Assembly (NCBI RefSeq): GCF_058153355.1
Contig: NZ_CM177019.1
Length of the DNA: 64,000 nt
Direction: 5' to 3' (one strand)
Position numbers and translations under genes: made by a program. The notes below the pieces were generated by a model. The model did not search any database. It had not been told where the DNA came from and was given only the letters and a program-made list of their open reading frames with translations. Shown here piece after piece: positions 3,367-20,029 of the stretch; the stretch's first letter is position 1, and each line of letters begins with the position of its first letter.

Positions 3367-3399
3367 GCCCGATAACATTTTGCTTATCGGGCATTTTTA
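3367..3399. terminator. Hairpin terminator between convergent lgoT and tsr
   Basis: Inverted repeat gcccgataa / ttatcgggc followed by ATTTTTA on the plus strand. Confidence 0.6.
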
Positions 3400-3405
3400 T
3401 GGCGA

Positions 3406-5070
3406 TTAAAACGTTTCCCAGTTCTCTCCGCTATCTGCCACTGCCACTTTGCGCGGCGCAGATGGCGTCACAGTTTTTACTACTGCCGATGCTTCGCGCT
3501 GGCGTTGCTGCTCTTGCTGAATCCGGAACACTGCCACAGCTTCGGTCAGGCGACTGGCCTGCTCCTCCAGCGCGGCGGCGGCGGCGGCAGATTCTTCCAC
3601 CAGCGCGGCGTTTTGTTGGGTTACCCGGTCCATCTCAGCTACTGCTAAGCCAACCTGATCGATACCACGGCTCTGCTCATCAGAAGCCGAAGCAATTTCG
3701 CCCATAATGTCCGTCACGCGGGTCACAGCGCTGACAATCTCTGCCATGGTTTCCCCGGCGCTTTCGACCAGCGTAGAGCCAACATCCACTTTGCCCACCG
3801 AGTCTTCAATCAGGCTTTTAATTTCGCGAGCCGCCTGAGCGCTACGCTGGGCCAGATTACGCACTTCTCCCGCAACCACCGCAAAACCGCGCCCTTGCTC
3901 ACCCGCACGCGCTGCTTCAACCGCCGCGTTCAAAGCCAGAATATTGGTCTGGAAGGCAATGCCGTCAATTACGCTGATAATATCGGCGATTTTCTGCGAA
4001 CTGGTGGAGATATCGCGCATGGTCTGCACCACGTTATCCACCACTTTGCCGCCGCGTTGCGCCGTTTCGGAAGCACTTAACGCCAGGTGGCTGGCCTGAC
4101 GCGCATTTTCGGCGTTCTGCTTCACCGTTGCGGTCAGTTGCTCCATGCTGGCTGCCGTCTCTTCCAGCGAAGCGGCCTGTTGCTCGGTGCGCGAAGAAAG
4201 ATCGTTATTGCCGGTGGCGATTTCGCTGGCACCGCTATAGATAGCATTGGCCCCGTTGCGCACATCACCGACGGTACGCATCAGCTCTCCCTGCATATGG
4301 CGCAAACTCTCTGCCAGTTGCCCCATCTCATTAGAACCATCCACCTCAATCGGTTTCACCAGATCGCCACCTGCAATATGACGAATGCTGTCAATCAGGC
4401 GATTCATTGGCGCTACCAACGAGGCTTTAATACCGAACCAGACGGCGAAGATGACTGCCAGTACGACGATCATCACGCCCACCAGAATCCACATCGCCTG
4501 GCTGTAGGAGGCATTATTATCGCTGACGGCGATATCATAGAGCCGATCGTTTTGCTCCATGTAAGCCACATACTGCTTCTCGAAACCGTCCTGATATCCC
4601 TGAGTCGGCTGATCAAAGAATTCGTTGATTTTGCCTGCACCTAACAGTTGGATCAGTTCCGCCAGCGCATTGTGATAAATATCGTAATTACGTTTGATCT
4701 CTGCCGCTGCGGCGGTGCTCTGACGCGGGTCACGCGGCAATGCTTCGTAATCCGCCCAGTTTTTTTCCGCCTGTTTCAGCGAAATACTGGCACTCTGCAT
4801 CAGCTCGGCAACGGTTGAACCGCTACCAATATTGTTCTGATCCATCATGTAGCGGATCCCCGCGCGGTTGAGGGTGTTACGCGTCTGTAACAACGCGACC
4901 CAGCTGCCATTCAGCGTGGATTGCTGCTGGCGAATGGTTTGTAAAACAGTGAAATTTTCTTTGTCATTCTTTAAGGCATTAAAGAACAGACCGCCTGATG
5001 TCAGTTGTAAAAGGCCAAAAACGGCCAAAACCAGCAGTAAGCTGGTCACGATCTTGATACGTTTTAACAT
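3406..5070 (-). CDS. tsr: Methyl-accepting chemotaxis protein I (serine chemoreceptor)
   Basis: [14 protein letters not shown]-terminus, periplasmic ligand domain, conserved MCP signalling region ([32 protein letters not shown]), C-terminal NWETF. Start taken at Met6 of the listed ORF. Confidence 0.95.
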
Positions 5071-5101
5071 GGTTTCTCTTTCCACTAGACAGATACACTG
5101 G

Positions 5102-5128
5102 TTGTCGGCCTGGTGGTGGAAAACTTTA
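5102..5128 (-). promoter_or_regulatory. sigma28 (FliA) class-III flagellar promoter of tsr
   Basis: Minus strand reads TAAAGTTT-N11-GCCGACAA, near-perfect match to FliA consensus TAAAGTTT-N11-GCCGATAA, about 30 nt upstream of the tsr start. Confidence 0.7.
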
Positions 5129-5209
5129 TGCTGTGGAAAAGCGTCGGCACTGCTTTTGTTGCAGCAAACTTGCGTTTTTTGTGAGGGTCACACTCTATAG
5201 CGGCAGTTT

Positions 5210-6115
5210 ATGGTACAAAGTATCAATCTTCTTCGAACCAGTGATACTCCCATGGCTTATAGCATCGATATCATCTCCTGTATTACCGAACGGTTTATGG
5301 CGTTAACCGCCACTGAAAAGCGTATCGCACAATTTATTCTTGATGACGTCTCTGCCGCAGTAGAGTTGCCAATTGCTGAGCTGGCACGGTTAACGCAAAC
5401 CAGTCAGGCGTCGGTGACGCGTTTTGCCCGTGCTCTGGGGTGCAAAGATGTCCGCGAGTTGAAAGTCAAACTGGCGCAGTCACTGGCTGTCGGGCAGCGG
5501 TTTATTCTCGATGTACCGGATCTTGACGGTGTTCAGGGGATCTACGAAGCGATTATTAGCGTGCTGGAAACGCATCGTCGTTCGCTGGATATGAATGCCA
5601 TCAGCCAGGCTGTAAGCTGGTTAAGTCAGGCGCGGCAAATTCTTGCGTTAGGAACTGGCGGCGGTTCCACTATCTGTTCACAGGAGATTCAGTACCGTTT
5701 ATTCCGTCTGGGGCTACCGGTGGTCAGTCAGAATGATGCCCTGATGATGAGAATGATGTGCTCGGCAGTGATGCCGCAGGATGTGGTGATTGTGCTGTCG
5801 CTGGGCGGTTATACACCGGAAATCATCGAAAGTGCGGCAATCGCCCGTCAGTATGGCGCGCGTGTTATTGCCATTACGCCAGCACAAACACCGCTGGCAG
5901 AACAGGTAGATCTGGTATTGCCGTTACTGGTTCAGGAGAGTGATTACATTTTTAAGCCCACCCCTTCCCGCTACGCGATGTTAGCCATGGTCGATGTACT
6001 GGCAACAGAACTGGCAATGGCAAATAAAGCGCAGGCGAAAGATCGCCTGCGGCGGATAAAACTGGTGTTAGACAGCCACCGTGGGGGCGCTAACCGCCAG
6101 CCACTTGGCGATTAG
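5210..6115 (+). CDS. RpiR/MurR-family transcriptional regulator (HTH_6 plus SIS sugar-phosphate-binding domain)
   Basis: HTH segment LARLTQTSQASVTRFARALGCKDVRELK; SIS-like ILALGTGGGS; start uncertain (Met at 5210, 5252 or 5297). Confidence 0.75.
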   Translation: MVQSINLLRTSDTPMAYSIDIISCITERFMALTATEKRIAQFILDDVSAAVELPIAELARLTQTSQASVTRFARALGCKDVRELKVKLAQSLAVGQRFILDVPDLDGVQGIYEAIISVLETHRRSLDMNAISQAVSWLSQARQILALGTGGGSTICSQEIQYRLFRLGLPVVSQNDALMMRMMCSAVMPQDVVIVLSLGGYTPEIIESAAIARQYGARVIAITPAQTPLAEQVDLVLPLLVQESDYIFKPTPSRYAMLAMVDVLATELAMANKAQAKDRLRRIKLVLDSHRGGANRQPLGD

Positions 6116-6124
6116 CATTGTCGG

Positions 6125-7594
6125 TTATGCTTCTTCAGGTTTGGTGATCACGACACTCTGGTTTTCACGCTCATTGGTGATAATAGCCAAAGCTTCTTCC
6201 CGGCTGACCTGACTTGCTGGCGTTACCAACGTCACCAGTACGCCAGCGACCAGGCTGCCCAGCACTGACGGAATACACGGGTTACCCCAGTAAGCCAGCC
6301 AGTCGGCATTCATCAGCACCACAATTGACATCACCATACCGCTCACTAACGCCGCCAGCGCGCCCTGCCAGTTAAAGCGTAGCCAGAAGCGACCGAGAAT
6401 CGAGCAGATAAACAGCCCGGACATCAGCATCGAAATCATTTTGGTAATGTAGCTGATGATGTCATTAGAGGTCAGAGCAAAGACCAGCGCCAGGCCAATA
6501 ACAAAGGTCAACATCCAGCGTGAGTAAGTAATGGCCTTGTCCTCCGGCGGCATTCTGCCGGTAATCATGGTGTAGACGTCGCGCATCATAATCGCCACCG
6601 CCGCGATGGCATCGGAGCTGGCGGAAGACATGGTGGCTGAAAGCCCGGCAATCAGCACCACCAGCCCAAGAATGGCAGGTAAGAAACTGGTCGCGAACAA
6701 GAAGGCGTAGTTGCTGTTTTCCAGATTTGGGTTCATGGTGAACGCCGCCATGCCGATAATGGCAGGCAGAATCGAGAAGAACAGATACAACACGCCAGTA
6801 ATAACAAATGAACGCCGTACAGAGGGAACGTCTTTTCCCGAGTAAATACGCTGGCGATAAGACGGTGTTGCCAGCACACCTACGCCAATAACCAGTGCCA
6901 GCGAAAGCGCAGGCAGCACGCCCATTTTATCAATCGCAAACAGGCTCATCGCTTTTGGGTCCATCGCCTGCTCAATCGCACTCCAGCCGCCAACGTGAAC
7001 AACGGCAAGAATAGCCATTAATATAAAGCCAAAGAACAGAATTAGGGCCTGAATAGTATCTGTCCACACTACCGCCGAATAACCGCCGATAATAACGTAA
7101 ATCGCAAAGGCCAAAGCGATAATTAATTTTGCTACAGTAAGATCAATACCCGTCGCCCAGGCAAGATACATACTGCCACCTAATATATGCGCTCCCAGCC
7201 AGCCAATAGAGGCAATAAATATCATCAGGCCGACAATATTTTTAATTAAATGGCTGCCGCCAGTATAATAAGATATTTCTTCACTCATGGTCATAAAACG
7301 TAATTTACGTACCGGTGCAAACAGCCACGCCACCAGTAATATACCTACGGCCCCACCGACGCCATAAAGCATTCCGGCCCAGCCATTGCTGTAGCCAAAG
7401 CCCACTGCGCCCATACTGGAACCCGTGCCAACCATCGTGGCAACGGTTGACCCCAGCGTCAGAAACAGCGGCAGCGAACGCCCGCCCAGCAGAAAATCTT
7501 CTCCGCTTTTCTGATTACGAGAAACAAACCAACCAAGCCAAATCATGGCGATGGCATAAATAATAAAGCCGACTAAAAAGATATGACTGTTCAT
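6125..7594 (-). CDS. Sodium:solute symporter (SSS) family transporter
   Basis: 489-aa polytopic membrane protein with SSS-type N-terminal region (GGRSLPLFLTLGSTVATMVGTGSSMG). Confidence 0.75.
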   Translation of the reverse strand: MNSHIFLVGFIIYAIAMIWLGWFVSRNQKSGEDFLLGGRSLPLFLTLGSTVATMVGTGSSMGAVGFGYSNGWAGMLYGVGGAVGILLVAWLFAPVRKLRFMTMSEEISYYTGGSHLIKNIVGLMIFIASIGWLGAHILGGSMYLAWATGIDLTVAKLIIALAFAIYVIIGGYSAVVWTDTIQALILFFGFILMAILAVVHVGGWSAIEQAMDPKAMSLFAIDKMGVLPALSLALVIGVGVLATPSYRQRIYSGKDVPSVRRSFVITGVLYLFFSILPAIIGMAAFTMNPNLENSNYAFLFATSFLPAILGLVVLIAGLSATMSSASSDAIAAVAIMMRDVYTMITGRMPPEDKAITYSRWMLTFVIGLALVFALTSNDIISYITKMISMLMSGLFICSILGRFWLRFNWQGALAALVSGMVMSIVVLMNADWLAYWGNPCIPSVLGSLVAGVLVTLVTPASQVSREEALAIITNERENQSVVITKPEEA

Positions 7595-7696
7595 AATTCA
7601 CATCCTGCCAGTAGAGAGAAATTAATGTAAGAGTTCCCGGAGTGCTGAATGTATTCAGCACTCAATTGCGGTCTGTTTTTTTAATTCTTAAATTTA

Positions 7697-8092
7697 TTAG
7701 CGGGTCGCGTTATAACAGGTCACATCGACTTCGACTTTACAATCGACAACCAGATCAGCCACACAACAAATACGTGCAGGCGGATTCTCGCCAAAAAATT
7801 CTCTGAATACTTTATTAAATGACTGGAAATAGCGGGCGTCGGTCAGGATCACTTTCACGTGAACCACATCCGCCAGGCTATAACCGGCTTCAGTCATGAT
7901 GTCGACACAGTTTTGGATCGCCAGTCGTGACTGTTCAACGATTCCGCCTTCTACCACTTCACCGTTTTTCATGGGTGTTTGCCCGGAGACGTACAGCCAG
8001 CCGCCCGCCTCAACCGCCCTGGCAAAAGGCAAATGCTGCCCGCCAGTGCCTGTTCCACCTTCCGTACCGTAACGTTTAATGCTCATATTCAC
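7697..8092 (-). CDS. RidA/YjgF-family reactive enamine/imine deaminase
   Basis: 131-aa protein with RidA-fold signatures; 3 bp downstream of the aminoacylase gene. Confidence 0.8.
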   Translation of the reverse strand: MNMSIKRYGTEGGTGTGGQHLPFARAVEAGGWLYVSGQTPMKNGEVVEGGIVEQSRLAIQNCVDIMTEAGYSLADVVHVKVILTDARYFQSFNKVFREFFGENPPARICCVADLVVDCKVEVDVTCYNATR

Positions 8093-8095
8093 TCC

Positions 8096-9547
8096 TTAAT
8101 GTGAGGTCTGCCGGCGCAGGAAGCGTCCCGCACGGCCTGTAATGTGTTTATCGCGACCATAGCTCATAACGCCGTTCACCATCACCGCCTCAATGCCATC
8201 TGCCGGGCGTTTGGGATCAGAAAAGCTGGCAACATCACGAATGGTTTGTGGATCGAACAACACCAGGTCCGCAAAATAGCCAACTTTCACCAGTCCACGC
8301 TGGGGCAGGCGAAAACGGCTGGCAGAAAGCCCGGTCATTTTGTGGATAGCCGTGGTCAGTGGGAATAAGCCTTCATCACGGCAATAGTGGCCCAGCACGC
8401 GAGGGAAGGCGCCCCATAAACGTGGATGCGGCATGGGATCATTGGGCAGGCCGTCAGAGCCAATCATACTGACCGGATAACTCAACACTCGGCGGACGTC
8501 GCGCTCGTCCATGTTGTAATAGATAGCCCCGGCAGGCATTAGCAGCTTCGCGGCCTCCAGCATACTCATCTGCCAGTCGATGGCGATTTGCGCCAGTGTT
8601 TTCCCGGCCTGCTGCGGATGTGTTTGTGACCAGGTGATCACAATATCGAATTCGTCGGTGACTTGTTTGAGATCCAGCGTTGAAGAGCTGGCTGAGTAAG
8701 GGTAGACATCGCAGCCAATTTCCTGGTGTTGACGCATTTGGTCAAAAAAAGCCAATGTTTCTTTTGTCCGCCCCCAGTTTTTCGCCCCGGCGCATTTATG
8801 GTGGGAAACCACGATAGGCACTTTGCCATGACGCCCAATACGAAACGCCTCATCCAGGGCATCGAGAATCGGTTCAAATTCAGAACGCAGATGGGTGGTA
8901 TAAACGCCCTTCTCACCGGCTAATTCTTCCGCCAGCGCCATGACTTCTTCGGTAGTCGCCTGAAATGCCGTTGCATAGGCCAGCCCGGAACTTAACCCCA
9001 GCGCCCCCTGACTCAACGCCAGACGTAAGTCGGCACGCATAGCGGCAATTTCATCCACCGTCGCCGGGCGAAACAGGTCGTCCATATGGTTATTACGCAG
9101 CGCCGTATGACCAATCAGCGTGCCAACGTTCAGTGACGGCCTGGCTGCTTCCACTGCCTGGGCATAGCTTTCAACGGTGGGATAAATAAAGTGCTCTGCT
9201 TCCCCCAACAGATTCATCGGGTCAGGAACTTCACCTTTCATTTTCGCCGACGCCGCACTAATCCCGCAGTTACCGACAATCACCGTAGTGATCCCCTGGC
9301 TGATCTTTGGCAGATATTCCGGGATGCGAATAACGTTGATATCGTCATGGGTATGAACGTCGATAAACCCTGGTGCCAGCACCCGCCCTTCCCCGTCAAT
9401 GACCTGCTGCGCCGTAACGTTAAGCGCAGGGGCAATATCGACAATCCGATCACCTGTTATTGCCACGTCACCGCGAAATTCAGGGCCGCCGCTACCGTCG
9501 ATAACGGTCACATTTTTGATTAACCAGTCAACCTGCATGTTCGTCAC
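8096..9547 (-). CDS. N-acyl-D-amino-acid deacylase (D-aminoacylase) family amidohydrolase
   Basis: 483 aa; metal-binding HTHDD motif near N-terminus, GNCG segment, length typical of D-aminoacylases. Confidence 0.75.
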   Translation of the reverse strand: MTNMQVDWLIKNVTVIDGSGGPEFRGDVAITGDRIVDIAPALNVTAQQVIDGEGRVLAPGFIDVHTHDDINVIRIPEYLPKISQGITTVIVGNCGISAASAKMKGEVPDPMNLLGEAEHFIYPTVESYAQAVEAARPSLNVGTLIGHTALRNNHMDDLFRPATVDEIAAMRADLRLALSQGALGLSSGLAYATAFQATTEEVMALAEELAGEKGVYTTHLRSEFEPILDALDEAFRIGRHGKVPIVVSHHKCAGAKNWGRTKETLAFFDQMRQHQEIGCDVYPYSASSSTLDLKQVTDEFDIVITWSQTHPQQAGKTLAQIAIDWQMSMLEAAKLLMPAGAIYYNMDERDVRRVLSYPVSMIGSDGLPNDPMPHPRLWGAFPRVLGHYCRDEGLFPLTTAIHKMTGLSASRFRLPQRGLVKVGYFADLVLFDPQTIRDVASFSDPKRPADGIEAVMVNGVMSYGRDKHITGRAGRFLRRQTSH

Positions 9548-9738
9548 TCCATTTCTGCAATGGTGACAAGTTAACCATTTACAAGGACGAAAAACAGTGG
9601 AAAACTACGCAAAACCCAGATGATTTTATGATACTTTTATTCATAAACTATAAGATAAATAAACTAAATATTTATATTTCATTTAGTTACAAATGATACC
9701 CATATCCGATACGGTGAAAAACTTAAAAGGTAAATGTT

Positions 9739-10959
9739 ATGAAATACCACTCAGAACCTCTGGTTCCCCATAAATCGGCCCTGATGCAAATGCCCGCAAA
9801 TCTCCTTGCCGAAGATGTCTGTTTACCTGCCGCGATCATTAAAAAGCAGGCCCTGGAGAACAACATTACGTGGATGCAACGCTACGCTGACGCGCGCGGC
9901 GTTTCACTGGCACCGCACGGTAAAACCACCATGACGCCGTGGATTTTTCAGGCGCAGCAGGCGGCAGGCGCCTGGGCAATAGGTGTCGGTAGCGCATGGC
10001 AGGCTGGTGCGGCAATGGCGAGCGGTATTCAGCGTGTGCTGATGGTTAACCAGTTGATCGGCAAGGCAAATATGCAGTTGATTGCCCGGTTGCAACGACA
10101 TTACCCGACGGTCGATTTTATCTGCTGTATCGACAGCATTGAGAACGCCCGCGCTTTGTCTGCCTTTTTTGCCAGTCAGCAACAGACACTGAACGTGATG
10201 ATTGAGCTGGGTGTTCCCGGCGGACGCTGTGGTTGCCGCTCAACGGATGCAGCACTGGCACTGGCTAAACAGGCGGCCCAATTACCAGGGCTACGTCTGC
10301 GCGGGCTTGAGTTATATGAAGGTGTTTTACACGGTGACGATCCACAACCGCAGGTAGAAGCTCTGCTGCGGGATGCCGCACAACTGGCCTGTGATATGGC
10401 AAGTTTGGTTGATGGCGAGTTTATTCTCACCGGAGCAGGCACGGTCTGGTATGACGTGGTGTGCAATATCTGGCTGGCGGCAGAAAAGCCTGATAACTGC
10501 CGCATTGTTATTCGCCCTGGCTGCTACATCACTCACGACACCGGGATCTACGACGCGGCACAACAACAGTTGCTCGCCCGTGATCCTGTGGCCTGTGATC
10601 TGGCAGGCGATCTCACATCTGCGCTGGAACTGGTCGCCATGGTGCAATCGGTGCCGGAAGCTGATCGTGCGGTGGTAAATTTTGGTAAGCGTGATTGCGC
10701 CTTCGACGCCGGACTGCCGCAACCAGTCGCCCACTATCGCAACGGCAAATCACTGGCATTTGATCCACAGGCGATTCGCAGTACAGGTATTATGGATCAG
10801 CACTGCATGTTGCAACTGTCAGCTAATAGCGACGTGCAAGTGGGGGATATTCTGGTGTTTGGCACATCGCATCCGTGCCTGACCTTCGACAAATGGAAAA
10901 CGTTGTTATTGGCTGATGACGACTACAACGTACTGGCGGAATTAGACACTCTCTTCTAA
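9739..10959 (+). CDS. Alanine-racemase-fold PLP enzyme of the DSD1 / D-threonine aldolase / D-serine dehydratase-like family
   Basis: 406 aa; PLP-lysine motif APHGKT near N-terminus; divergent from the aminoacylase operon across an AT-rich 190-bp spacer. Confidence 0.7.
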   Translation: MKYHSEPLVPHKSALMQMPANLLAEDVCLPAAIIKKQALENNITWMQRYADARGVSLAPHGKTTMTPWIFQAQQAAGAWAIGVGSAWQAGAAMASGIQRVLMVNQLIGKANMQLIARLQRHYPTVDFICCIDSIENARALSAFFASQQQTLNVMIELGVPGGRCGCRSTDAALALAKQAAQLPGLRLRGLELYEGVLHGDDPQPQVEALLRDAAQLACDMASLVDGEFILTGAGTVWYDVVCNIWLAAEKPDNCRIVIRPGCYITHDTGIYDAAQQQLLARDPVACDLAGDLTSALELVAMVQSVPEADRAVVNFGKRDCAFDAGLPQPVAHYRNGKSLAFDPQAIRSTGIMDQHCMLQLSANSDVQVGDILVFGTSHPCLTFDKWKTLLLADDDYNVLAELDTLF

Positions 10960-10964
10960 GAATA

Positions 10965-10996
10965 CCCCTTCGGTTAATTATCGAAGGGGCATTTTT
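10965..10996 (+). terminator. Rho-independent terminator after the DSD1-like gene
   Basis: ccccttcg / cgaagggg stem followed by CATTTTTATT. Confidence 0.7.
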
Positions 10997-11042
10997 ATTG
11001 TGATCTCAATCACATATCCACCCGACGAATAATTCTTGCCCA

Positions 11043-11070
11043 ACCGCTCACCGCCATTCCTGACCGCTTA
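11043..11070 (+). promoter_or_regulatory. Direct-repeat BtsR (YehT) response-regulator site upstream of btsT
   Basis: ACCGCTCA-N12-ACCGCTTA direct repeat about 280 bp upstream of btsT; matches the ACC(G/A)CT(C/T)A repeat motif I recall for the yjiY promoter. Confidence 0.55.
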
Positions 11071-11349
11071 CGTCCCAAATATAACCACTCAGTTATTTAC
11101 CTTACTTTACGCGCGCGTAACTCTGGCAACATCACTGCAGGATAGCGGTCAATTTACCTCCTCAAACGCAACGCAAACCTAGAACGGCTTCGGCCTATGA
11201 TTAACAAATTACTCTATGGATTTTGGTTTGCAGGAAGGCAGCAAGTGAGTGAATCCCCGGGAGCTTACAAAAGTAAGTGACAGGGGTGAACGAACGCAGC
11301 TGCCGCACCTGTAAGCCAAAAGACGACGAGTAAAATGCCAGGTTTTACT

Positions 11350-13500
11350 ATGGATACGAAAAAACTATTCAAGCACATACCCTGGGTGATTCTTGGAATC
11401 ATCGGTGCATTCTGCCTCGCGGTAGTTGCATTACGTCGGGGGGAGCACGTCAGCGCCCTGTGGATCGTGGTCGCCTCTGTGTCGGTGTATCTGGTGGCTT
11501 ATCGCTACTACAGTTTGTACATCGCCCAGAAAGTGATGAAACTCGACCCCACGCGCGCGACGCCTGCGGTTATTAACAATGACGGTCTGAACTATGTTCC
11601 GACCAACCGTTACGTGTTGTTTGGTCACCACTTCGCCGCTATCGCCGGTGCTGGTCCGCTGGTTGGTCCGGTTCTCGCCGCGCAGATGGGCTACCTGCCT
11701 GGCACGCTGTGGTTGCTGGCGGGGGTAGTGCTGGCCGGTGCGGTTCAGGACTTTATGGTGCTGTTTATCTCCTCTCGCCGTAACGGCGCATCTCTCGGTG
11801 AGATGATCAAAGAAGAGATGGGACCAGTACCGGGGACTATCGCGCTGTTTGGCTGTTTCTTAATCATGATCATCATCCTCGCCGTTCTGGCGCTGATTGT
11901 GGTTAAAGCCCTGGCCGAAAGTCCGTGGGGTGTCTTCACCGTTTGCTCAACCGTACCAATTGCGCTGTTTATGGGTATCTACATGCGCTTTATCCGTCCG
12001 GGGCGTGTAGGTGAAGTCTCTGTTATTGGTATCGTGCTGCTGGTTGCCTCTATCTACTTCGGTGGTGTGATTGCTCACGATCCGTACTGGGGTCCGGCAC
12101 TGACCTTTAAAGACACCACCATTACCTTCGCACTGATTGGCTATGCGTTTGTTTCCGCACTGCTGCCGGTGTGGCTGATCCTCGCACCGCGCGACTATCT
12201 GGCAACCTTCCTGAAAATCGGCGTTATCGTCGGCCTGGCGCTGGGTATCGTGGTGCTGAACCCGGAACTGAAAATGCCTGCGATGACCCAGTACATTGAC
12301 GGTACTGGCCCGCTGTGGAAAGGCGCTCTGTTCCCGTTCCTGTTCATCACCATCGCCTGTGGTGCGGTATCTGGCTTCCACGCGCTAATCTCTTCCGGTA
12401 CGACGCCGAAACTGCTGGCTAACGAAACCGACGCGCGTTTCATCGGCTACGGTGCAATGCTGATGGAGTCCTTCGTGGCGATTATGGCGCTGGTTGCTGC
12501 GTCCATCATCGAACCGGGTCTTTACTTCGCGATGAATACTCCGCCTGCGGGCCTTGGCATCACCATGCCTAACCTGCATGAGATGGGTGGCGAGAACGCG
12601 CCGATCATCATGGCACAACTGAAAGACGTTACCGCACACGCGGCAGCGACCGTCAGCTCCTGGGGCTTCGTGATTTCGCCAGAGCAGATCCTGCAAACCG
12701 CGAAAGACATTGGTGAGCCTTCTGTCCTGAACCGTGCAGGTGGTGCGCCGACGCTGGCGGTAGGTATCGCTCACGTGTTCCACAAAGTGCTGCCGATGGC
12801 TGACATGGGCTTCTGGTATCACTTCGGTATTCTGTTCGAAGCCCTGTTCATCCTGACCGCGCTGGATGCGGGTACCCGTTCTGGCCGCTTTATGCTGCAG
12901 GACCTGCTGGGTAACTTCATCCCGTTCCTGAAAAAAACCGACTCTCTGGTTGCTGGTATCATCGGTACTGCGGGCTGTGTGGGTCTGTGGGGCTACCTGC
13001 TGTATCAGGGCGTGGTCGATCCGCTGGGCGGCGTTAAGAGCCTGTGGCCGCTGTTCGGTATCTCCAACCAGATGCTGGCAGCCGTGGCGCTGGTACTGGG
13101 CACCGTTGTGCTGATTAAGATGAAACGCACCCAATACATCTGGGTAACTGTTGTTCCGGCTGTATGGCTGCTTATCTGCACCACCTGGGCGCTGGGCCTG
13201 AAACTGTTCAGCACCAACCCGCAGATGGAAGGCTTCTTCTACATGGCAAGCCAGTACAAAGAGAAGATTGCTAACGGTACTGACCTGACGGCACAGCAGA
13301 TTGCCAACATGAACCACATCGTTGTGAACAACTACACCAACGCAGGCCTGAGTATTCTGTTCCTGATTGTGGTGTACAGCATCATCTTCTACGGTTTCAA
13401 AACCTGGCTGAAGGTGCGTAACAGCGACAAACGTACTGACAAAGAAACACCGTACGTTCCAATCCCGGAAGGCGGCGTGAAGATCTCTTCGCACCACTAA
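11350..13500 (+). CDS. btsT: CstA-family pyruvate/H+ symporter
   Basis: 716 aa from MDTKKLFKHIPWVILG; CstA-family membrane protein; followed by yjiX and yjiA. Confidence 0.95.
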   Translation: MDTKKLFKHIPWVILGIIGAFCLAVVALRRGEHVSALWIVVASVSVYLVAYRYYSLYIAQKVMKLDPTRATPAVINNDGLNYVPTNRYVLFGHHFAAIAGAGPLVGPVLAAQMGYLPGTLWLLAGVVLAGAVQDFMVLFISSRRNGASLGEMIKEEMGPVPGTIALFGCFLIMIIILAVLALIVVKALAESPWGVFTVCSTVPIALFMGIYMRFIRPGRVGEVSVIGIVLLVASIYFGGVIAHDPYWGPALTFKDTTITFALIGYAFVSALLPVWLILAPRDYLATFLKIGVIVGLALGIVVLNPELKMPAMTQYIDGTGPLWKGALFPFLFITIACGAVSGFHALISSGTTPKLLANETDARFIGYGAMLMESFVAIMALVAASIIEPGLYFAMNTPPAGLGITMPNLHEMGGENAPIIMAQLKDVTAHAAATVSSWGFVISPEQILQTAKDIGEPSVLNRAGGAPTLAVGIAHVFHKVLPMADMGFWYHFGILFEALFILTALDAGTRSGRFMLQDLLGNFIPFLKKTDSLVAGIIGTAGCVGLWGYLLYQGVVDPLGGVKSLWPLFGISNQMLAAVALVLGTVVLIKMKRTQYIWVTVVPAVWLLICTTWALGLKLFSTNPQMEGFFYMASQYKEKIANGTDLTAQQIANMNHIVVNNYTNAGLSILFLIVVYSIIFYGFKTWLKVRNSDKRTDKETPYVPIPEGGVKISSHH

Positions 13501-13509
13501 CCGTGTTTA

Positions 13510-13536
13510 GCCCCGCTTCGGCGGGGCTTTGTTCTT
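13510..13536 (+). terminator. Rho-independent terminator after btsT
   Basis: gccccgc-ttcg-gcggggc hairpin followed by TTTGTTCTT. Confidence 0.7.
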
Positions 13537-13549
13537 ATCAGAGTGAACT

Positions 13550-13753
13550 ATGTTTGGTAACTTAGGACAGGCAAAAAAATATCTCGGCCAGGCGGCGAAG
13601 ATGTTGATTGGCATTCCAGACTACGACAACTACGTCGAGCATATGAAGACCAACCATCCCGACAAGCCGTACATGAGCTATGAAGAATTCTTCCGCGAAC
13701 GCCAGAACGCGCGCTACGGCGGCGATGGTAAAGGCGGTATGCGCTGTTGTTAA
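13550..13753 (+). CDS. yjiX: Small conserved protein (DUF466, CstA-associated)
   Basis: 67-aa ORF directly downstream of btsT. Confidence 0.85.
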
Positions 13754-13763
13754 TGGAGAGAGC

Positions 13764-14720
13764 ATGAACCCGATTGCAGTTACCCTACTCACCGGTTTTT
13801 TAGGCGCAGGCAAAACCACCCTGCTGCGCCATATTCTTAATGAACAGCACGGCTACAAAATTGCCGTGATTGAAAACGAATTCGGCGAAGTCTCCGTTGA
13901 TGATCAACTGATTGGCGACCGCGCCACGCAGATCAAAACGCTGACCAACGGCTGCATCTGTTGTTCGCGCTCCAACGAGCTGGAGGACGCGCTACTCGAC
14001 CTGCTGGATAATCTCGACAAGGGCAATATTCAGTTCGACCGTCTGGTCATTGAATGCACAGGCATGGCCGATCCCGGCCCGATTATTCAGACCTTTTTCT
14101 CCCATGAGATTTTATGCCAGCGTTACCTGCTGGACGGCGTGATTGCGCTGGTGGATGCGGTACATGCCGATGAGCAGATGAACCAGTTCACCATCGCCCA
14201 GTCACAGGTTGGCTACGCCGACCGCATTCTGCTGACCAAAACCGACGTCGCAGGCGAAGCAGAAAAACTGCGTGAACGCCTGGCGCGCATCAACGCCCGC
14301 GCACCGGTCTACACCGTCACCCACGGCGACATCGATCTGGGCCTGCTGTTCAACACCAACGGTTTTATGCTGGAAGAAAACGTCGTCAGCACCAAACCGC
14401 GTTTCCACTTTATCGCGGATAAACAAAACGATATTTCGTCGATTGTGGTGGAACTGGATTACCCGGTAGATATCAGCGAAGTTTCTCGGGTGATGGAAAA
14501 CCTGCTGCTGGAATCGGCGGATAAACTGCTGCGTTACAAAGGGATGCTGTGGATTGACGGCGAACCAAATCGCCTGCTGTTCCAGGGCGTCCAGCGCCTC
14601 TACAGCGCCGACTGGGACCGCCCGTGGGGCGATGAAAAACCGCATAGCACAATGGTGTTTATCGGGATTCAGCTGCCGGAGGAAGAGATTCGGGCTGCGT
14701 TTGCGGGGTTGAGGAAGTAA
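13764..14720 (+). CDS. yjiA: CobW/P47K-family GTPase
   Basis: 318 aa from internal Met (GGAGAG RBS); P-loop GFLGAGKTT. Confidence 0.9.
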   Translation: MNPIAVTLLTGFLGAGKTTLLRHILNEQHGYKIAVIENEFGEVSVDDQLIGDRATQIKTLTNGCICCSRSNELEDALLDLLDNLDKGNIQFDRLVIECTGMADPGPIIQTFFSHEILCQRYLLDGVIALVDAVHADEQMNQFTIAQSQVGYADRILLTKTDVAGEAEKLRERLARINARAPVYTVTHGDIDLGLLFNTNGFMLEENVVSTKPRFHFIADKQNDISSIVVELDYPVDISEVSRVMENLLLESADKLLRYKGMLWIDGEPNRLLFQGVQRLYSADWDRPWGDEKPHSTMVFIGIQLPEEEIRAAFAGLRK

Positions 14721-14788
14721 GTTCGGGAAAGATCAACTTTTTGAGAGTTCCACCGCAATATTATTACGAGTGGAACTCTTTAGATATG

Positions 14789-16463
14789 TCAGACCAACCA
14801 AAGCTTCTTCAATTGCGTTTTCATTTTTTCATGTCTCATTTTCAGTTCAGCCAATCCCCATTCTGAAGAATTACAAACATCTTTTGTTAAATCAAAAGAG
14901 CTTTTACTATTAAGTTTCTCATAAATAGATTTCTTTTTGATAAAATCATAGTGTTGTGCTTCAGAATTTTTGGAACCACTTATGAGTGTTAAATTACCTA
15001 TTTTATGCAGCCAGTAGACATGCTCTTGAGGTTGGAATCTATTAATCCAGTATTCATTAACTAATGCTTGAGGAAGAATATGCTCAATTGTGATTCTCCC
15101 CGTATAGGTTTTAATCACGCTCTCATCTTGTTGCTCCATATCTAAGCGAAGCAAAATTGCTTTTATTAAGTTCACTTGATTCGGACGAGGCTCATATAAA
15201 TCTTCATCCAGTGCAGCTATAAAACCTGAATTATCTGCATGTTGGTTTATCTGATTTATCACAGAATCAAAAGGCATATCATTATTTATTGCTACCAGAG
15301 CTGAATAACAAACCATTTCTCTTTGGCTTTTAATTTGTTTTTTTAACCACCCATGCATATATACCTTCTCAAAGGCGGTAATAAATTGAGAAAAATCATC
15401 TAAATTAAAATCTTCTGTACGAGCCATTCGATTCATGAATGCCATAACCGGAGGAATCCACTCATCTACCCCTAAATTACTTAGCGATGCTATTTTTCGT
15501 CGTATTGAAGGGTGTTCAAAATCATTCTCTAAAATCTTAGTATAATTTTTTGCAGAATTAACCAACATCAGTGACATAGCAATAGCATCTCCATCAAATT
15601 GCTGCTGGAGATTTTCAATAAAAGCTTCAAAACCTTTTTGTAACACCCTGTCACGATCTTTTTTCTCGGAAAGCTTATGAAGAGTAAGAAATTTATCAAG
15701 CCGTCTCACTCCAACCATATCTTCAATTTGCGACCATGCTGATTCTATTTGCTCTAATTTTTTATTATGTGTAGAAGCTGATTCAAACAGTGCATTTTTT
15801 AAAAGAACTGCATTACTTAAAGGTAAACCTCGACTATTTAATACATTAAAGAGTCTAAATGATGATGCGAAATCATCTGTTTGCACAAATACGATATATA
15901 CATTTTGCAAAATATATTTAGCAAGCAACTTCAACTCATCAACAGATAACCGCAACAAATAATCTCTAATTGTTTCAGCGTTGCTAATGAATACTAAATC
16001 AGTATCCGATGGCTTTTCAGGCTTATAATCTTTAGAATCCTGCAGTATATAATATTTATAAAGATCATACTCTTTTTTTCTAACAATTAGTCTTGGTTCA
16101 TCTGTTTCATCAGAATAAACATCAATAGGTAGAACTCTTTTTTTGCAAATCATCTTTTATCCCCTGAATCGGGATGATTTTTTTTAGCTCGGAGACAATA
16201 ATACTTAACGTTGTAAGACGTTGTTGCCCATCTACAACTTCATACTGATTTTGCCCTTTATTGATACAAATCATACTCCCAATAAAATATTCATTCTCTT
16301 CTGATTGAGAGCTTTTATAAATGTCATCAATGAGTTGCTCTGCATTATCTACCGTCCAACTGTAAGGACGCTGATAAGAAGGAATAATAAACTTTTTGTT
16401 TTCAGTAAGGATATCCTGCACCTTACATTCTTTAGCTTCCATTTCATATACCCAATCAAACAA
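14789..16463 (-). pseudogene. GmrSD-like type IV restriction endonuclease (DUF262 ParB-like N-domain plus DUF1524 HNH-like C-domain), frameshifted
   Basis: Two overlapping minus-strand ORFs (16463-16122 and 16153-14789). The upstream piece has the DUF262 motif PSYQRPYSW...DGQQR. They are joined only by a 1-nt frame change inside an A7 run (plus-strand T7 at 16138-16144). AT-rich. Confidence 0.7.
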
Positions 16464-16599
16464 TCAACAATAACATTATCTTTCTTGCCCGAAAGAAACG
16501 CAACTATAAGATTTTTATATATTTTGTTAGAGATATTAGTAGCAAAAGGCCACGATAAATTTCTCTCCCCTTCCCCATACGGGAAGGGGAAATACCCCC

Positions 16600-16764
16600 T
16601 CACTCCACATCCTCCCTGCGTAACCCAATATCCCTCAACCGTTCATCACTCATCTGCTGTAACACGCGTCGGGTCTGCATTTGCCGCCGCCAACGCCTCA
16701 CCGCCTGCCAGAGTTGCACCAGGCCGATAAACGGCGCTTTAGCTCTGTTTTCGTGAAATACCAT
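16600..16764 (-). CDS. yjiS: DUF1127-family small protein (YjiS-like)
   Basis: Hand-translated 54-aa ORF MVFHENRAKAPFIGLVQLWQAVRRWRRQMQTRRVLQQMSDERLRDIGLRREDVE with the DUF1127 signature; below the ORF-track length cut-off; divergent from yjiR. Confidence 0.7.
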   Translation of the reverse strand: MVFHENRAKAPFIGLVQLWQAVRRWRRQMQTRRVLQQMSDERLRDIGLRREDVE

Positions 16765-16940
16765 CTGCTGCCTCCTCATCTTTCAGAGGCTTCATCATCC
16801 GCCTTCTGGCAGTTCACAATACAGATGCAAATATTAGTTTTATTTAACATACAGACAGGTTAAAACAACATCTGCATCCGGTTTTTTAGCCTCATCTGTA
16901 CCGGTTTTTCTCTCTGTATGGTCCAAATAAGGAGTACAGC

Positions 16941-18353
16941 ATGACGCGTTATCAACATCTGGCGACTCTGCTTGCCGAACGGATTGAGCAAGGGCTGTAT
17001 CGTCACGGGGAGAAATTGCCGTCGGTGCGCAGCTTAAGTCAGGAGCACGGCGTCAGTATCAGCACCGTGCAGCAGGCGTATCAGACGCTGGAGACGATGA
17101 AGCTCATCACTCCGCAGCCGCGTTCGGGTTATTTTGTCGCACAACGTAAAGCCCAGCCGCCAGTACCGCCGATGACGCGTCCGGTGCAGCGCCCGGTGGA
17201 AATTACCCAGTGGGATCAGGTGCTGGATATGCTGGAGGCGCATAGCGACAGTTCCATTGTTCCGTTAAGCAAAAGCACGCCGGATGTCGAAACGCCCAGC
17301 TTGAAACCGCTGTGGCGGGAGCTAAGCCGGGTGGTGCAGCATAATCTGCAAACCGTTCTCGGTTATGACTTGTTAGCCGGTCAGCGAGTATTGCGAGAGC
17401 AGATTGCCCGCCTGATGCTCGACAGCGGCTCGGTAGTCACCGCCGATGACATCATTATTACCAGCGGCTGCCATAACTCGATGTCGCTGGCGTTAATGGC
17501 GGTGTGTAAACCGGGCGATATTGTCGCGGTCGAATCCCCCTGTTATTACGGTTCGATGCAGATGCTGCGCGGCATGGGCGTGAAAGTGATTGAAATCCCA
17601 ACCGATCCAGAAACAGGCATCAGCGTTGAAGCGCTGGAACTGGCGCTGGAACAGTGGCCAATTAAAGGCATCATTCTGGTGCCAAACTGTAATAATCCGC
17701 TGGGATTTATTATGCCGGACGCGCGCAAACGGGCCGTTCTCTCTCTCGCTCAGCGTCATGATATTGTGATTTTTGAAGATGATGTCTATGGCGAACTGGC
17801 AACGGAGTATCCGCGCCCGCGGACCATTCATTCCTGGGATATCGACGGGCGAGTGCTGCTGTGCAGTTCGTTCAGTAAAAGCATTGCACCAGGCCTGCGC
17901 GTGGGTTGGGTCGCACCGGGGCGTTATCACGATAAACTGCTGCATATGAAATACGCCATCAGCAGCTTTAATGTGCCGTCCACGCAAATGGCGGCGGCAA
18001 CGTTTGTGCTGGAAGGTCACTATCATCGCCATATCCGGCGGATGCGGCAGAATTATCAGCGCAATTTGGCGCTTTATACCTGCTGGATACGGGAATATTT
18101 TCCCTGCGAAATCTGTATTACGCGCCCGAAAGGCGGATTTTTACTGTGGATAGAATTGCCTGAACAGGTCGATATGGTCTGCGTTGCGCGACAGCTGTAC
18201 CGCATGAAAATCCAGGTGGCGGCAGGCTCGATTTTCTCGGCTTCCGGCAAATACCGTAATTGTCTACGCATCAACTGCGCTTTACCGCTCAGCGAAACCT
18301 ATCGCGAAGCACTGAAGCAAATTGGCGAGGCCGTGTATCGGGCAATGGAATGA
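16941..18353 (+). CDS. yjiR: MocR-family regulator (GntR HTH fused to aminotransferase-like domain)
   Basis: 470 aa; N-terminal GntR HTH and class-I aminotransferase-like fold; AAGGAG RBS. Confidence 0.9.
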   Translation: MTRYQHLATLLAERIEQGLYRHGEKLPSVRSLSQEHGVSISTVQQAYQTLETMKLITPQPRSGYFVAQRKAQPPVPPMTRPVQRPVEITQWDQVLDMLEAHSDSSIVPLSKSTPDVETPSLKPLWRELSRVVQHNLQTVLGYDLLAGQRVLREQIARLMLDSGSVVTADDIIITSGCHNSMSLALMAVCKPGDIVAVESPCYYGSMQMLRGMGVKVIEIPTDPETGISVEALELALEQWPIKGIILVPNCNNPLGFIMPDARKRAVLSLAQRHDIVIFEDDVYGELATEYPRPRTIHSWDIDGRVLLCSSFSKSIAPGLRVGWVAPGRYHDKLLHMKYAISSFNVPSTQMAAATFVLEGHYHRHIRRMRQNYQRNLALYTCWIREYFPCEICITRPKGGFLLWIELPEQVDMVCVARQLYRMKIQVAAGSIFSASGKYRNCLRINCALPLSETYREALKQIGEAVYRAME

Positions 18354-18450
18354 ATTCGAAATAGTGGCGAAGCGCCTGATTTCCTCTCACGAATCGCGTG
18401 TGACTCGTTTTATCTTTGCTGGGTCATCGCCACGTTCCAGCCTGAATTAG

Positions 18451-18570
18451 GCAAAGTGCGCTTTGTTCATGCCGGATGCCATGTGAACGCCTTACCAGGT
18501 CTACAAAATCTTTAAAGTTCAATATATTTAATGGGTTATGTAGACCTGATAAGTGTAGCGCATCAGGCTG
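18451..18570. repeat. REP/BIME palindromic units
   Basis: gccggatgc...cgcctta... and inverted gtagacctgataag...gcgcatcaggc units typical of E. coli REP elements. Confidence 0.7.
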
Positions 18571-18595
18571 CTTTGCGTTTGTCATCCGTCTCTGA

Positions 18596-19552
18596 TTAGT
18601 ACTCGATCCATGGATCACGCTTGCTTTCAGGCAAGGGCTGATCTAATGCCTGCATTTGCTCTGCCGAAAGTCCGGTATATCGTTGTATCCATTCAGGATC
18701 GGCCCCATTCTGCAACAACAATCGGAGGAGGCTCCGTTCCCCTTCTACTTTCCCTTCTTTCCTCCCCCTCTCCCTTCCCAACAGCCATCCATCATTATGA
18801 ATTCGCTCTGCAATTGTCATTATTCGCTCCCTGTGGTGTGGCATTCGCCTGGTAAGTTCGCTGATAAACGCCTTAAAACGCGCTTCATCGCCAGTCAGTA
18901 AAATGTAATTTAACAGCGCAGTTATCTGGCTGTCATTAGCGCACCCTGTAACCAGTAATACTGCCAGTTGATCAATAAGCCCCATTAGATCGCGCTGGCG
19001 AATATGCTTTTGGATCAACTCCAACAGGGCGACTCTGCGATGCTGCACAATCTCGTCATCCGGCACGATAGTGATATCCACCAGCGGGAACGCGGCGTTA
19101 TAAAGCTTCCGTGCGGTAGTCGGGTCGGCAAATTCGTCCAGCCAGCACAAAGACCAGGGATAAGGACTACGGCTACCGTGATAAAACAGCATCGGGATGA
19201 CCAGCGGTAGCGGTCGGCGTTTATCATGTTCGATATGGCGCTGCATCACCGCCATGGAATAGCGCATCAGGCGAAAAGCCATGTGAATATCCTCACGGCT
19301 CTGATGTTCAATCACCACATAGATATAGCCATCTCCTTTACGGGTCTTTACCGACCACAGAATATCGGAATGTAGCGCCCGTAATTTTTCATCGACAAAG
19401 CTGGCGGATTCCAGTTTTAAGCTATCGAGATCGCACAGTTCACGTAAATCTATTGGTAAGTGGATCTCCATAAAATCCCGCGCGGTGTCAGGGTGGGTGA
19501 GAAAGGATTTAAATAATGCGTCATGCGGCGTACTGGTCGTGAAGTTTGTCAT
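18596..19552 (-). CDS. rpnD: Rpn-family recombination-promoting nuclease (PD-(D/E)XK, transposase_31-like), uninterrupted
   Basis: 318 aa; N-terminal HDALFKSFL and core typical of the YhgA/Rpn family; adjacent to mdtM where K-12 has yjiP/yjiQ. Confidence 0.8.
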
Positions 19553-20029
19553 GGCGATCCGTCACCTGTAGATAAGATGGCCCGACTTTAGCGACTAACA
19601 AAACCATTCTCACCCGGCTATTTTCCGTTCCCCGAGGCGCTTTCTAGGCTATTTTTGTTCCTCTGCAAACGATACATTTTTCCGGAAACAGGCTCGCGTT
19701 TTACATTTCCTGTACCCGGCAGATATTCCCCTTTCCACCGCGCTCTTTTGATTAACCGCAAATTTTAATTACACTTAAGGTGTATATTTTCTATGCAACC
19801 CATCAATTCAAGAGGTGTAATGTGCTGATGACTATTTGTAATCGTTATACATTCTGACCCGAAGTCAGAAAGTATTTCACTGTCTGTGTGTTCACAGGCA
19901 GTGTGGTTGATTACATGAAATTCAGTACATTTGCAGTCTCGTTGCCCTTCTCACCTGCCTTTCGTCATTACCGACGGTATTGAATTTCGTTTTCCCCGTT
20001 GGGGTTCTCCGGACAAGGAGTTGTTTGTT

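Follow-up and report, generated by a model that had tools for sequence, protein, structure and literature searches.

The window, a stretch of 64,000 nucleotides from contig NZ_CM177019.1 (NCBI RefSeq assembly GCF_058153355.1), very probably contains a decayed immigration control region (ICR). We put the probability at about 0.85 that this locus is a derivative of the type-IB haplotype of Escherichia coli by a deletion of ~6.4 kb, that its gene is broken, and that the intact form of the encoded protein is a stand-alone, type IV-like enzyme. The gene is of the GmrSD family (DUF262 + DUF1524) and belongs to its cluster CLS_005. The features of the locus are collected in Table 1.

The interval between yjiA and yjiS spans 14721-16599. 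At 1,879 bp it has the ~1.9 kb that a sequence-only reading had claimed, and its GC content is 0.335, compared with 0.541 in the left flank and 0.512 in the right. Its sole gene is a minus-strand gene with GmrSD_N (DUF262) and GmrSD_C (DUF1524) domains. yjiR starts at 16941 by the window gene calls. The ORF list for this interval includes no methyltransferase gene, and an Rfam scan of 14000-17500 gave nothing over threshold, SymR included. In the best complete E. coli genomes, identity is ~98.7% on the left flank and 96.6% on the right.

The locus was taken by the sequence-only reading for the ICR, a known variable hotspot, and the anchors and gene order bear this out. Variable defence cargo lies between yjiA(-yjiX-btsT) and yjiS-yjiR-rpnD(-mdtM-yjiN), as comparison of gene order with K-12, E. 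coli C and O157 shows. In MG1655 the yjiS-yjiA interval consists of yjiT, yjiV', mcrCB, symE, hsdSMR and mrr and has no DUF262 gene, in line with the claim that the gene is missing from this position in K-12. An earlier figure of ~14 kb for the K-12 block was a fair approximation; the exact yjiS-yjiA length is 15,993 bp and the mrr-to-mcrC block alone is ~11 kb.

Table 1 Features of the yjiA-yjiS locus in the window (positions are those of the whole 64,000-nt stretch).
Feature	Position	Strand	Basis
yjiA (CobW-family GTPase, 318 aa), conserved left ICR anchor	13764..14720	+	ORF list; cobW/CobW_C call on the identical Logan contig; yjiA annotation in every aligned E. coli locus
GmrSD-family (DUF262 + DUF1524; CLS_005) type IV restriction-like pseudogene	14789..16442	-	547/550 aa as in WP_000387532.1 once one A is removed; GC 0.331
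C-terminal fragment ORF, 454 aa: rest of DUF262 (FxxxN), helical linker, DUF1524 His-Me nuclease (IEHILPQ, N483, N492)	14789..16153	-	ORF list, Pfam, PADLOC
Codon 212, GTT (Val), GAT (Asp) in all other alleles; second probable inactivating change	15806..15808	-	Alignment
N-terminal fragment ORF, 106 aa + stop, with QR and VVDGQQRLTT motifs; ends 4 out-of-frame codons (SSTY) past the frameshift run	16122..16442	-	ORF list; Pfam GmrSD_N
Frameshift in codons 100-102: coding-strand A7 (T7 on +), A6 in intact alleles	16138..16144	-	Comparison with the alleles of E. coli C, O157 TR01 and others
Candidate sigma-70-like promoter of the GmrSD gene, CTAACA-16-TATAGT, retained on the gene side of the deletion junction	16503..16530	-	Consensus scan; weak, 9/12 matches, sites fewer than in shuffled sequence
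Deletion junction: left, DNA from upstream of the gene (90 bp kept of the usual 277 bp between it and hsdR); right, symE 3' end	16532..16533		Homology breakpoints
symE 3' remnant, last ~24 nt with stop codon, 339-nt symE allele type	16535..16558	+	Comparison with ET201 and EH08-18-36 (end of annotated symE abutting yjiS)
GC-rich hairpin CCCCTTCCCC-ATA-CGGGAAGGGG between convergent symE remnant and yjiS	16567..16589		Read from sequence; kept in all compared haplotypes
yjiS (DUF1127, 54 aa), conserved right ICR anchor	16600..16764	-	ORF list, locus alignments, Logan contig call

As judged from comparison of its sequence with other haplotypes, the locus derives from the type-IB haplotype by deletion. 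Upstream of the gene, 90 bp correspond to the gmrSD-hsdR intergenic DNA of that haplotype, in register and with 1-2 substitutions. The match to E. coli C and O157 extends up to 16532, and that to ET201 and EH08-18-36 begins at 16535. The deletion extends from 187 bp upstream of hsdR to 24 nt before the symE stop. Direct joining of the 90-bp shared upstream DNA to the 24-nt symE tail is what an internal deletion leaves behind. Among complete E. coli genomes, none reads across the junction 16532/16533. The hairpin beyond the symE remnant lacks a T run, and the scan therefore did not call it a terminator.

The ancestor had the order yjiA, CLS_005 gmrSD-family gene (minus strand), hsdR-hsdM-hsdS (EcoAI family), symE and yjiS. 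A single deletion of ~6.4 kb removed most of the gmrSD-hsdR intergenic DNA, the whole hsdRMS and all of symE but its last ~24 nt, and the gmrSD-family gene was left as the lone defence gene. Slippage within its A6 run added one A and shifted the frame.

We conceived that the gene could instead have entered on its own, as a cassette, at a locus that was empty beforehand. Its low GC marks it as horizontally acquired, and its orthologues do travel solitary, for example in a cassette-array-like region of Vibrio parahaemolyticus. However, the type-IB upstream DNA is followed directly by the end of symE, and in the same frame of reference a 564-bp hsdR stub is found in E. coli C and an hsdS stub in EH08-18-36. 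An independent insertion is thus extremely improbable, and the symE tail together with the upstream DNA shared with type IB led us to reject it. The same symE tail tells against the proposal that the single gene is an alternative cargo replacing mrr-hsdRMS-mcrBC; it is rather a remnant of the type-IB haplotype.

The haplotype from which the locus descends is widespread. The gene of WP_000387532.1 (550 aa) is present in 619 of 5,426 complete E. coli genomes (11%), every time beside yjiA, that is, in the mrr position. Carriers of the CLS_005 gene include O157:H7, ATCC 8739 and E. coli C. Its usual neighbours are type IB hsdRMS, symE and often a second GmrSD, and the normal type-IB haplotype was observed in O157 TR01, FDAARGOS_946, STEC276, MS15236 and F1005. 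The gene adjoins hsdRMS in most E. coli, yet is transcribed divergently from it. It is common and already catalogued in E. coli, and constitutes no new system, mechanism or architecture. Supplementary Data 6 of a 2025 Nat Commun paper (PMC12373910) includes WP_000387532.1 and the O157 fragment WP_001304004 among CLS_005 members, and the yjiA-adjacent position is shown there for ATCC 8739 and EC4115. The variants CLS_001-020 appear in that paper as single-gene and two-gene type IV architectures, and a CLS_005 representative was reportedly assayed against T-even phages (PMC12373910).

The closest counterpart of the window locus is the ICR of E. coli C, a near-empty region that has been in the literature as an 'empty site' since 2004 (Sibley & Raleigh 2004, as cited in PMC12707154 and PMC3874153). 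There the same gene (99.5% protein identity) lies beside yjiA as the sole complete ORF between yjiA and yjiS; hsdMS, symE, mrr and mcrBC are absent, and the region is ~13 kb shorter than in K-12. Unlike the window, E. coli C has kept 564 bp of type-IB hsdR as a stub, and the end of its deletion lies just past the symE stop codon. Its gene is intact, whereas that of the window carries the frameshift and D212V. Going by their sequences, the loci of E. coli C, EH08-18-36 and the window have been reduced independently and to different end points.

The gene is 1,654 nt long in the window and 1,653 nt in the intact allele. As had been expected, it needs conceptual repair: two overlapping ORFs become a single frame after removal of one A, although the repaired protein has 550 aa rather than the ~560 aa foreseen. 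The predicted pair of DUF262 and DUF1524 domains in an AT-rich gene was recovered by Pfam. In the intact allele of E. coli C (550 aa), GmrSD_N (PF03235) matches residues 8-219 at E 4.7e-41 and GmrSD_C (PF07510) matches residues 412-540 at E 2.1e-27. In precomputed Pfam calls on the window products, the 106-aa product has GmrSD_N and the 454-aa product has GmrSD_N and GmrSD_C. Full-length PADLOC matches are Orf5 PDLC02690 at 1e-141 and HEC-06 at 1.5e-66, and in NCBIfam no model for the CLS_005 protein was found.

The family motifs QR, (I/V)(I/V)DGQQRLTT, FxxxN and C-terminal (E/D)H...N...N, as defined by Machnicka 2015, are all recognizable in the repaired translation. In the N-terminal domain they are Q24-R25, V69-VDGQQRLTT-78 and F195-RLF-N199, of which D71-R75 (DGQQR) is invariant in 26 of 26 homologues. 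The HNH-like motif anticipated at the C terminus is seen as I-E453-H454-ILPQ with N483 and N492, again invariant in all 26. An AlphaFold2 model of the protein has a pLDDT of 86 and a pTM of 0.78. When it was compared with the PDB by Foldseek (E<=1e-3), only DndI, SspE and BrxU matched, with E from 3.5e-14 to 3e-05 and modest TM-scores of 0.29-0.53.

From what is known of the family, the intact 550-aa protein would be a stand-alone enzyme without a cognate methyltransferase. Its N-terminal DUF262 domain would bind and hydrolyse NTP via DGQQR, and DNA would be cut by a C-terminal His-Me finger (E453-H454...N483...N492), connected to that domain through a helical linker. The described activity of GmrSD enzymes is NTP-stimulated cleavage of modified DNA (hmC, glc-hmC, m5C), with restriction of modified phage. 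Since unmodified hosts tolerate the gene by itself, modified (phage) DNA is most likely the target of the intact protein. In E. coli C, Leclercia, Vibrio parahaemolyticus and Nostoc the intact gene stands by itself; in these four contexts, as in the window interval, it has no cognate methyltransferase beside it. A specificity for glc-hmC, as in T4, could be proposed for the CLS_005 protein by analogy only.

The prototypes for glc-hmC and hmC, Eco94GmrSD and EcoCT596 GmrSD, share the two Pfam domains, the catalytic motifs and the single chain, but are ~600-630 aa long, prophage-borne and highly diverged, in cluster CLS_006. The ICR GmrSD of He et al. 2015 is a 733-aa gene at the mcrBC position, not the yjiA-adjacent CLS_005 gene. 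HEC-06 / PADLOC Orf5 shows a full-length match, ~550-570 aa, DGQQR and an EHxxP His-Me motif, and it acts alone; HEC-06 comes from inside Hma systems, whereas the gene of the window type lies beside type I hsd or is solitary. Defence by HEC-06 is lost in DGQQR mutants and in EH mutants (Payne et al. 2024 bioRxiv), which bears on the importance of the region that is split in the window. BrxU (PDB 7P9K), SspE (6JIV, 7DRS) and DndI (9JFL) have the same architecture of DUF262 NTPase and DUF1524 HNH, with 13-15% identity to the CLS_005 protein. BrxU cuts modified DNA, whereas SspE and DndI work in conjunction with host phosphorothioation, attack unmodified DNA and spare modified self. The window has no such partner genes.

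These structural matches raise the question of whether the protein is not type IV at all but a DndI/SspE-like effector that cuts unmodified DNA, is restrained by host modification and is here orphaned from its partner. The best match among solved structures is indeed DndI (9jfl: phmmer E 4.8e-13, Foldseek E 3.5e-14, TM 0.52), which spares self DNA by sensing phosphorothioate, and SspE also ranks above BrxU in both sequence and fold matches. A type IB methyltransferase normally adjoins the gene in E. coli. However, identity to DndI is only ~15%, and neither sspABCD nor dndBCDE, linkage to which would befit a phosphorothioate-sensing effector, is found beside the gene in the window or in 10 other contexts. 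The intact gene occurs without hsdM in E. coli C and alone in Leclercia, Vibrio and Nostoc, where an unrestrained nuclease acting on unmodified DNA should not be tolerated. The family is classed among single-gene GmrSD type IV systems, and its HEC-06 relatives defend alone. We therefore consider a DndI/SspE-like effector very unlikely and retain a stand-alone, type IV-like enzyme as the activity of the intact protein.

The window copy itself is damaged and has probably lost its function. Because of the extra A at 16138-16144, no uninterrupted frame runs over both domains. The frameshift leads to a stop at residue 106, between DGQQR (71-75) and FxxxN (195-199) of the ParB/Srx-like NTPase domain. 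At residue 212 all 26 homologues, the most distant at 52% identity, have Asp, and Val is specific to the window lineage. The copy with A7 and D212V is a new broken allele of CLS_005. Exact-protein look-ups over 153 billion gene positions returned one sample each for the 454-aa and 106-aa products. By descent the copy is a member of the family, but it is most likely a dead pseudogene.

Could the gene still function? The extra A could be a sequencing or assembly error, transcription could slip on A7, or the 106-aa and 454-aa products could form a two-chain enzyme, as GmrS/GmrD was once thought to be. A homopolymer is a classic error site for a frameshift; however, A7 is also present in the Logan assembly of run SRR31441161 (100% identity over 9,365 bp), although this isolate may be that of the window and so may not be independent. 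A7 is, by general knowledge, short for efficient slippage of RNA polymerase. dnaX-like frameshifting on A_AAA_AAG was rejected because, as read from the sequence, a -1 slip does not restore the frame and +1 or -2 is required. The start region and a promoter-like site are preserved. Both fragments retain ORFs, the 454-aa one with its own ATG and GGGGA upstream, from which the C-terminal fragment could still be made, and a two-gene GmrS1/GmrSD2 system exists in ECOR17. But the break falls within the NTPase domain, not between domains, and the 'two-chain' enzyme of CT596 arose as an artefact when a single-chain gene was cloned. Five of the eight substitutions specific to the window lineage are synonymous, suggesting that the gene was constrained for most of its history and that inactivation may be very recent; against function, D212V hits an invariant residue. 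All in all, a functional gene is quite unlikely, and the copy is taken as a pseudogene.

Decay of this gene is not confined to the window. Of 60 carriers sampled systematically from the 619, 24 had an intact copy, 30 a split one and 6 a truncated one. Other decayed alleles are A8->A7 in the O157/O55 clade, MS15236 and F1005, A8->A9 in STEC276, and an IS1 truncation in EH08-18-36. Together with A6->A7 in the window, three tract-length alleles fall within 45 nt, and A8->A7 occurs in strains with differing flanking gene content, as if the A8 and A6 tracts were a reversible phase-variation (contingency) switch with the window in the OFF phase. The A8->A7 allele could, however, have spread by recombination, and tracts of 6-8 nt are generally known to slip rarely compared with known contingency loci. 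The A7 allele of the window was seen in one sample among the gene positions searched. Nine A/T runs of at least 6 occur in the E. coli allele, simply as a result of its 33% GC. Furthermore, neither tract is conserved in the Leclercia, Vibrio and Nostoc orthologues, as it should be in a contingency gene: in their place are AAGAAG and CAGAAACGT in Leclercia, and AAAGAAG and CAAAAGCGC in Vibrio. Phase variation is thus highly improbable and was rejected for this lack of conservation.

A broader reading of the recurrent homopolymer frameshifts (at least three tract alleles, most sampled carriers broken) is a recurrent, perhaps reversible, selected switch-off of a self-toxic type IV nuclease upon a change of host modification, such as gain, loss or specificity change of the adjacent type IB methyltransferase, or else that the split products are a two-chain enzyme. 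We give this only a very small chance. In our preferred reading, the CLS_005 gmrSD gene has been inactivated in the window independently of the other cases.

With E. coli C and the IS1-mediated case of EH08-18-36, the locus brings to three the independent routes by which the type-IB ICR haplotype has been emptied, and it agrees with the view that defence cargo is rapidly gained and lost at the ICR hotspot. The main value of the finding lies in annotation and strain biology. Given the frameshift and D212V, the strain most likely lacks a working restriction function at this locus. It is very probably without working ICR restriction and, like E. coli C, may be unusually permissive to foreign DNA and phages as far as this locus is concerned.

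The yjiA-yjiS interval of the window is 1,879 bp long with a GC content of 33.5% (54% and 51% in the flanks), and holds a single minus-strand gene, seen as two overlapping ORFs. In K-12 MG1655, the same interval spans 15,993 bp with yjiT, yjiV', mcrCB, symE/symR, hsdSMR, and mrr, and locus comparison found no copy of the window's gene there. These results bear out the sequence-only reading of one AT-rich gene, absent from K-12 at this position, in place of a large block.

Features of the window and of compared loci in other genomes
Feature	Coordinates	Strand	Remark
tsr-btsT accessory block	~5100-10990
ORF in accessory block	9739-10959
yjiA	end 14720	+	left anchor
ORF, 454 aa	16153..14789	-	second ORF of interval gene
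ORF, 106 aa	16442..16122	-	first ORF of interval gene
A7 run	16138-16144
Inverted repeat	16481-16498
Promoter-like -10	16503-16508
Agreement with E. coli C and O157	until 16532
Final 24 nt of symE	from 16535
GC-rich hairpin	16567-16589
yjiS, 54 aa	16600-16764	-	right anchor
yjiR	start 16941
Rpn-family gene (rpnD/yjiP), mdtM			right of yjiR
Right flank	16600-19915		yjiS, yjiR, Rpn-family gene
ORF, 1,746 aa	29874-35114
E. coli C WG5 locus	L001:6069-8562
Second, larger GmrSD	L002:20330-22423; L004:20329-22422; L015:17213-19306
Other homopolymer frameshift alleles	L004:13380-13500; L015:10368-10652; L016:10368-10652; L005:13368-13654
Leclercia orthologue	L011:7142-10667; L012
V. parahaemolyticus orthologue	L008-L010:1-17653

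Alignment with E. coli C WG5 and O157:H7 TR01 resolved the two ORFs into one gene split by one extra A, as the coding strand at the break reads GCAAAAAAAGAG in the window and GCAAAAAAGAG in intact alleles. When the extra A is deleted, the product has 550 aa, identical at 547/550 to WP_000387532.1. The DUF262/DUF1524 pair noticed earlier was recovered by Pfam in the intact allele as GmrSD_N (PF03235, residues 8-219, E 4.7e-41) and GmrSD_C (PF07510, residues 412-540, E 2.1e-27), and precomputed matches for the window's own 106-aa and 454-aa products are consistent with it. The family-defining motifs (Machnicka et al. 2015) were all found, namely Q24-R25, VVDGQQRLTT (69-78), F195xxxN199, IEHILPQ (452-458), N483, N492, and the C-terminal W...R...W, and the catalytic motifs do not vary across 26 homologues with identity down to 52%. 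With PADLOC, the full-length protein matched 'Orf5' (1e-141) and HEC-06 (1.5e-66), the latter a GmrSD-like protein of ~560 aa that protects E. coli from phages and is dead when mutated at DGQQR or EH (Payne et al. 2024 bioRxiv). The only significant PDB neighbours of the AlphaFold2 model (pLDDT 86) were DndI, SspE, and BrxU; the nearest solved relatives, DndI and SspE, are phosphorothioate-sensing, but share only ~15% identity with this protein.

WP_000387532.1 and the O157 fragments belong to cluster CLS_005, within the 20 commonest Enterobacteria clusters according to a 2025 GmrSD survey, which also describes cluster representatives being synthesised and then challenged with T-even phages (PMC12373910). 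Orthologues of a constant ~550 aa occur in Leclercia, Pectobacterium, Enterobacter, Vibrio, Photobacterium, and Nostoc, and stand alone without a methyltransferase partner in the contexts examined. The Leclercia orthologue (91% identical) likewise adjoins yjiA (cobW); on its other side lie a gene for penicillin amidase, the cargo reported for the immigration control region (ICR) of E. coli W, and a CobW_C fragment of 159 aa that could stem from a partial duplication of yjiA. The V. parahaemolyticus orthologue (76% identical) sits amid many small same-strand ORFs (acetyltransferases, unknowns). This run looks like an integron-type cassette array, a setting that suggests one route of the gene's movement.

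The CLS_005 gene was found in 619 of 5,426 complete E. coli genomes, near full length in 573 and chromosomal in every case, and it adjoins yjiA at K-12's mrr position in all loci examined. The usual order, read from O157 TR01, FDAARGOS_946, STEC276, MS15236, and F1005, starts with yjiA and the CLS_005 gene (minus strand), followed by a type IB (EcoAI-family) hsdR-hsdM-hsdS set and symE, then in many cases by a second GmrSD of larger size in the place of mcrBC, and lastly by yjiS. That second gene was split or truncated in all O157-type and related loci opened. The ICR GmrSD under discussion in He et al. 2015 occupies the mcrBC position, and 12% of enterobacterial ICRs have GmrSD homologues (2025 review).

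The window agrees with E. coli C and O157 over the gene and the 90 bp that precede its start codon. Past that point E. coli C and O157 run on toward hsdR, and the window passes into the symE tail, the GC-rich hairpin, and yjiS. In ET201 and EH08-18-36, with the same arrangement, an annotated 339-nt symE lies immediately beside yjiS. The joining of gene-upstream DNA to a symE tail shows that the window is the type-IB haplotype after an internal deletion. The missing DNA is ~6.4 kb (measured on O157 TR01), comprising 187 bp of intergenic sequence, hsdRMS, and symE except its tail. The sequence-only interpretation is supported in part: a GmrSD-family gene does sit at a known hotspot, but it is the remnant of a deletion in a common haplotype and not a distinct alternative cargo.

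The window's junction was found in 0 of 5,426 complete E. coli genomes. In E. coli C, a 564-bp hsdR stub is kept and the deletion reaches to just beyond the stop codon of symE, and in EH08-18-36 an IS1-associated deletion runs from within the CLS_005 gene to an hsdS stub. These differing end points indicate, from sequence comparison, at least three independent strippings of the haplotype. The 'empty site' was defined from the locus of E. coli C, the classical 'restrictionless' strain (PMC12707154, PMC3874153); in WG5 the locus holds an intact GmrSD-family gene and the type-IB hsdR stub.

In the window, the +1 frameshift stops translation at residue 106, past DGQQR and ahead of FxxxN and the rest of DUF262, so the NTPase domain itself is divided. 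Rescue by a -1 ribosomal slip on A_AAA_AAG was rejected, because the frame is not restored and +1 or -2 is required. The window lineage also carries D212V, where all 26 other aligned homologues have Asp212. Five of its eight lineage-specific substitutions are synonymous, which suggests that the gene was under constraint until recently. A Logan assembly of run SRR31441161 matches 9,365 bp of the window at 100% identity, with A7 run and junction inside the match, and no further sample of the collection has the 106-aa and 454-aa proteins. The A7 allele is therefore rare and backed at read level, with reads possibly of the same isolate. Between the promoter-like -10 and the start codon lies a perfect inverted repeat, TTTCTT-GCCCGA-AAGAAA, kept in E. 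coli C and O157 with one substitution, which could be a 5'-UTR hairpin or operator.

Decay of the gene recurs in E. coli. Another A tract, which lies 45 nt upstream of the place where A6 became A7 in the window, went from A8 to A7 in the O157:H7/O55:H7 clade, MS15236, and F1005, and from A8 to A9 in STEC276. Among 60 genomes evenly spaced among the 619 carriers, the gene was intact in 24, split in 30, and truncated or IS-hit in 6. AT-richness alone gives the E. coli allele its nine A/T runs of 6 or more. A designed phase-variation switch was rejected, since this AT-richness explains the runs and the Leclercia, Vibrio, and Nostoc orthologues do not keep the A tracts. We attribute the frameshifts to slippage, the gene being AT-rich and often dispensable or costly.

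The analysis shows the domain architecture, motifs, fold class, lack of a partner methyltransferase, frameshift with D212V, and deletion junction. From family knowledge, the intact enzyme would hydrolyse NTP through the DGQQR site and cut DNA by a His-Me finger (E453/H454/N483/N492), with modified DNA as the probable target. E. coli C carries an intact copy with no methyltransferase at all, and in other hosts the gene stands by itself; one argument for modification dependence is that such hosts should not tolerate a nuclease against ordinary DNA. Historically, E. coli C was the host that did not restrict DNA propagated in K-12 and B (PMC12707154, PMC3874153), so the intact enzyme evidently spares DNA with the modifications of those strains. 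T4 DNA with glc-hmC would be a target by analogy only.

Elsewhere in the window, the tsr-btsT accessory block is absent from O157 and K-12. In genomes that match it, the annotation there names a sodium:solute symporter and an N-acyl-D-amino-acid deacylase, and a called gene extending into its listed ORF has alanine-racemase-N/D-serine-dehydratase-like domains. Window 1-14720 is covered at ≥80% by just 158 of 5,426 genomes. The 1,746-aa ORF downstream of the ICR corresponds to the ET201 gene annotated as inverse autotransporter IatD, and has no bearing on the GmrSD finding. Among 5,426 complete E. coli genomes, the best identity is 96.6% for the right flank, about 98.7% for the left flank, and 99.4% for the GmrSD gene. 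These unequal values argue that the ICR junction is also a boundary of segments with separate histories, which fits the known high polymorphism of the region. Both the gene and the hotspot are known, and the deletion-plus-frameshift state is new but unremarkable.
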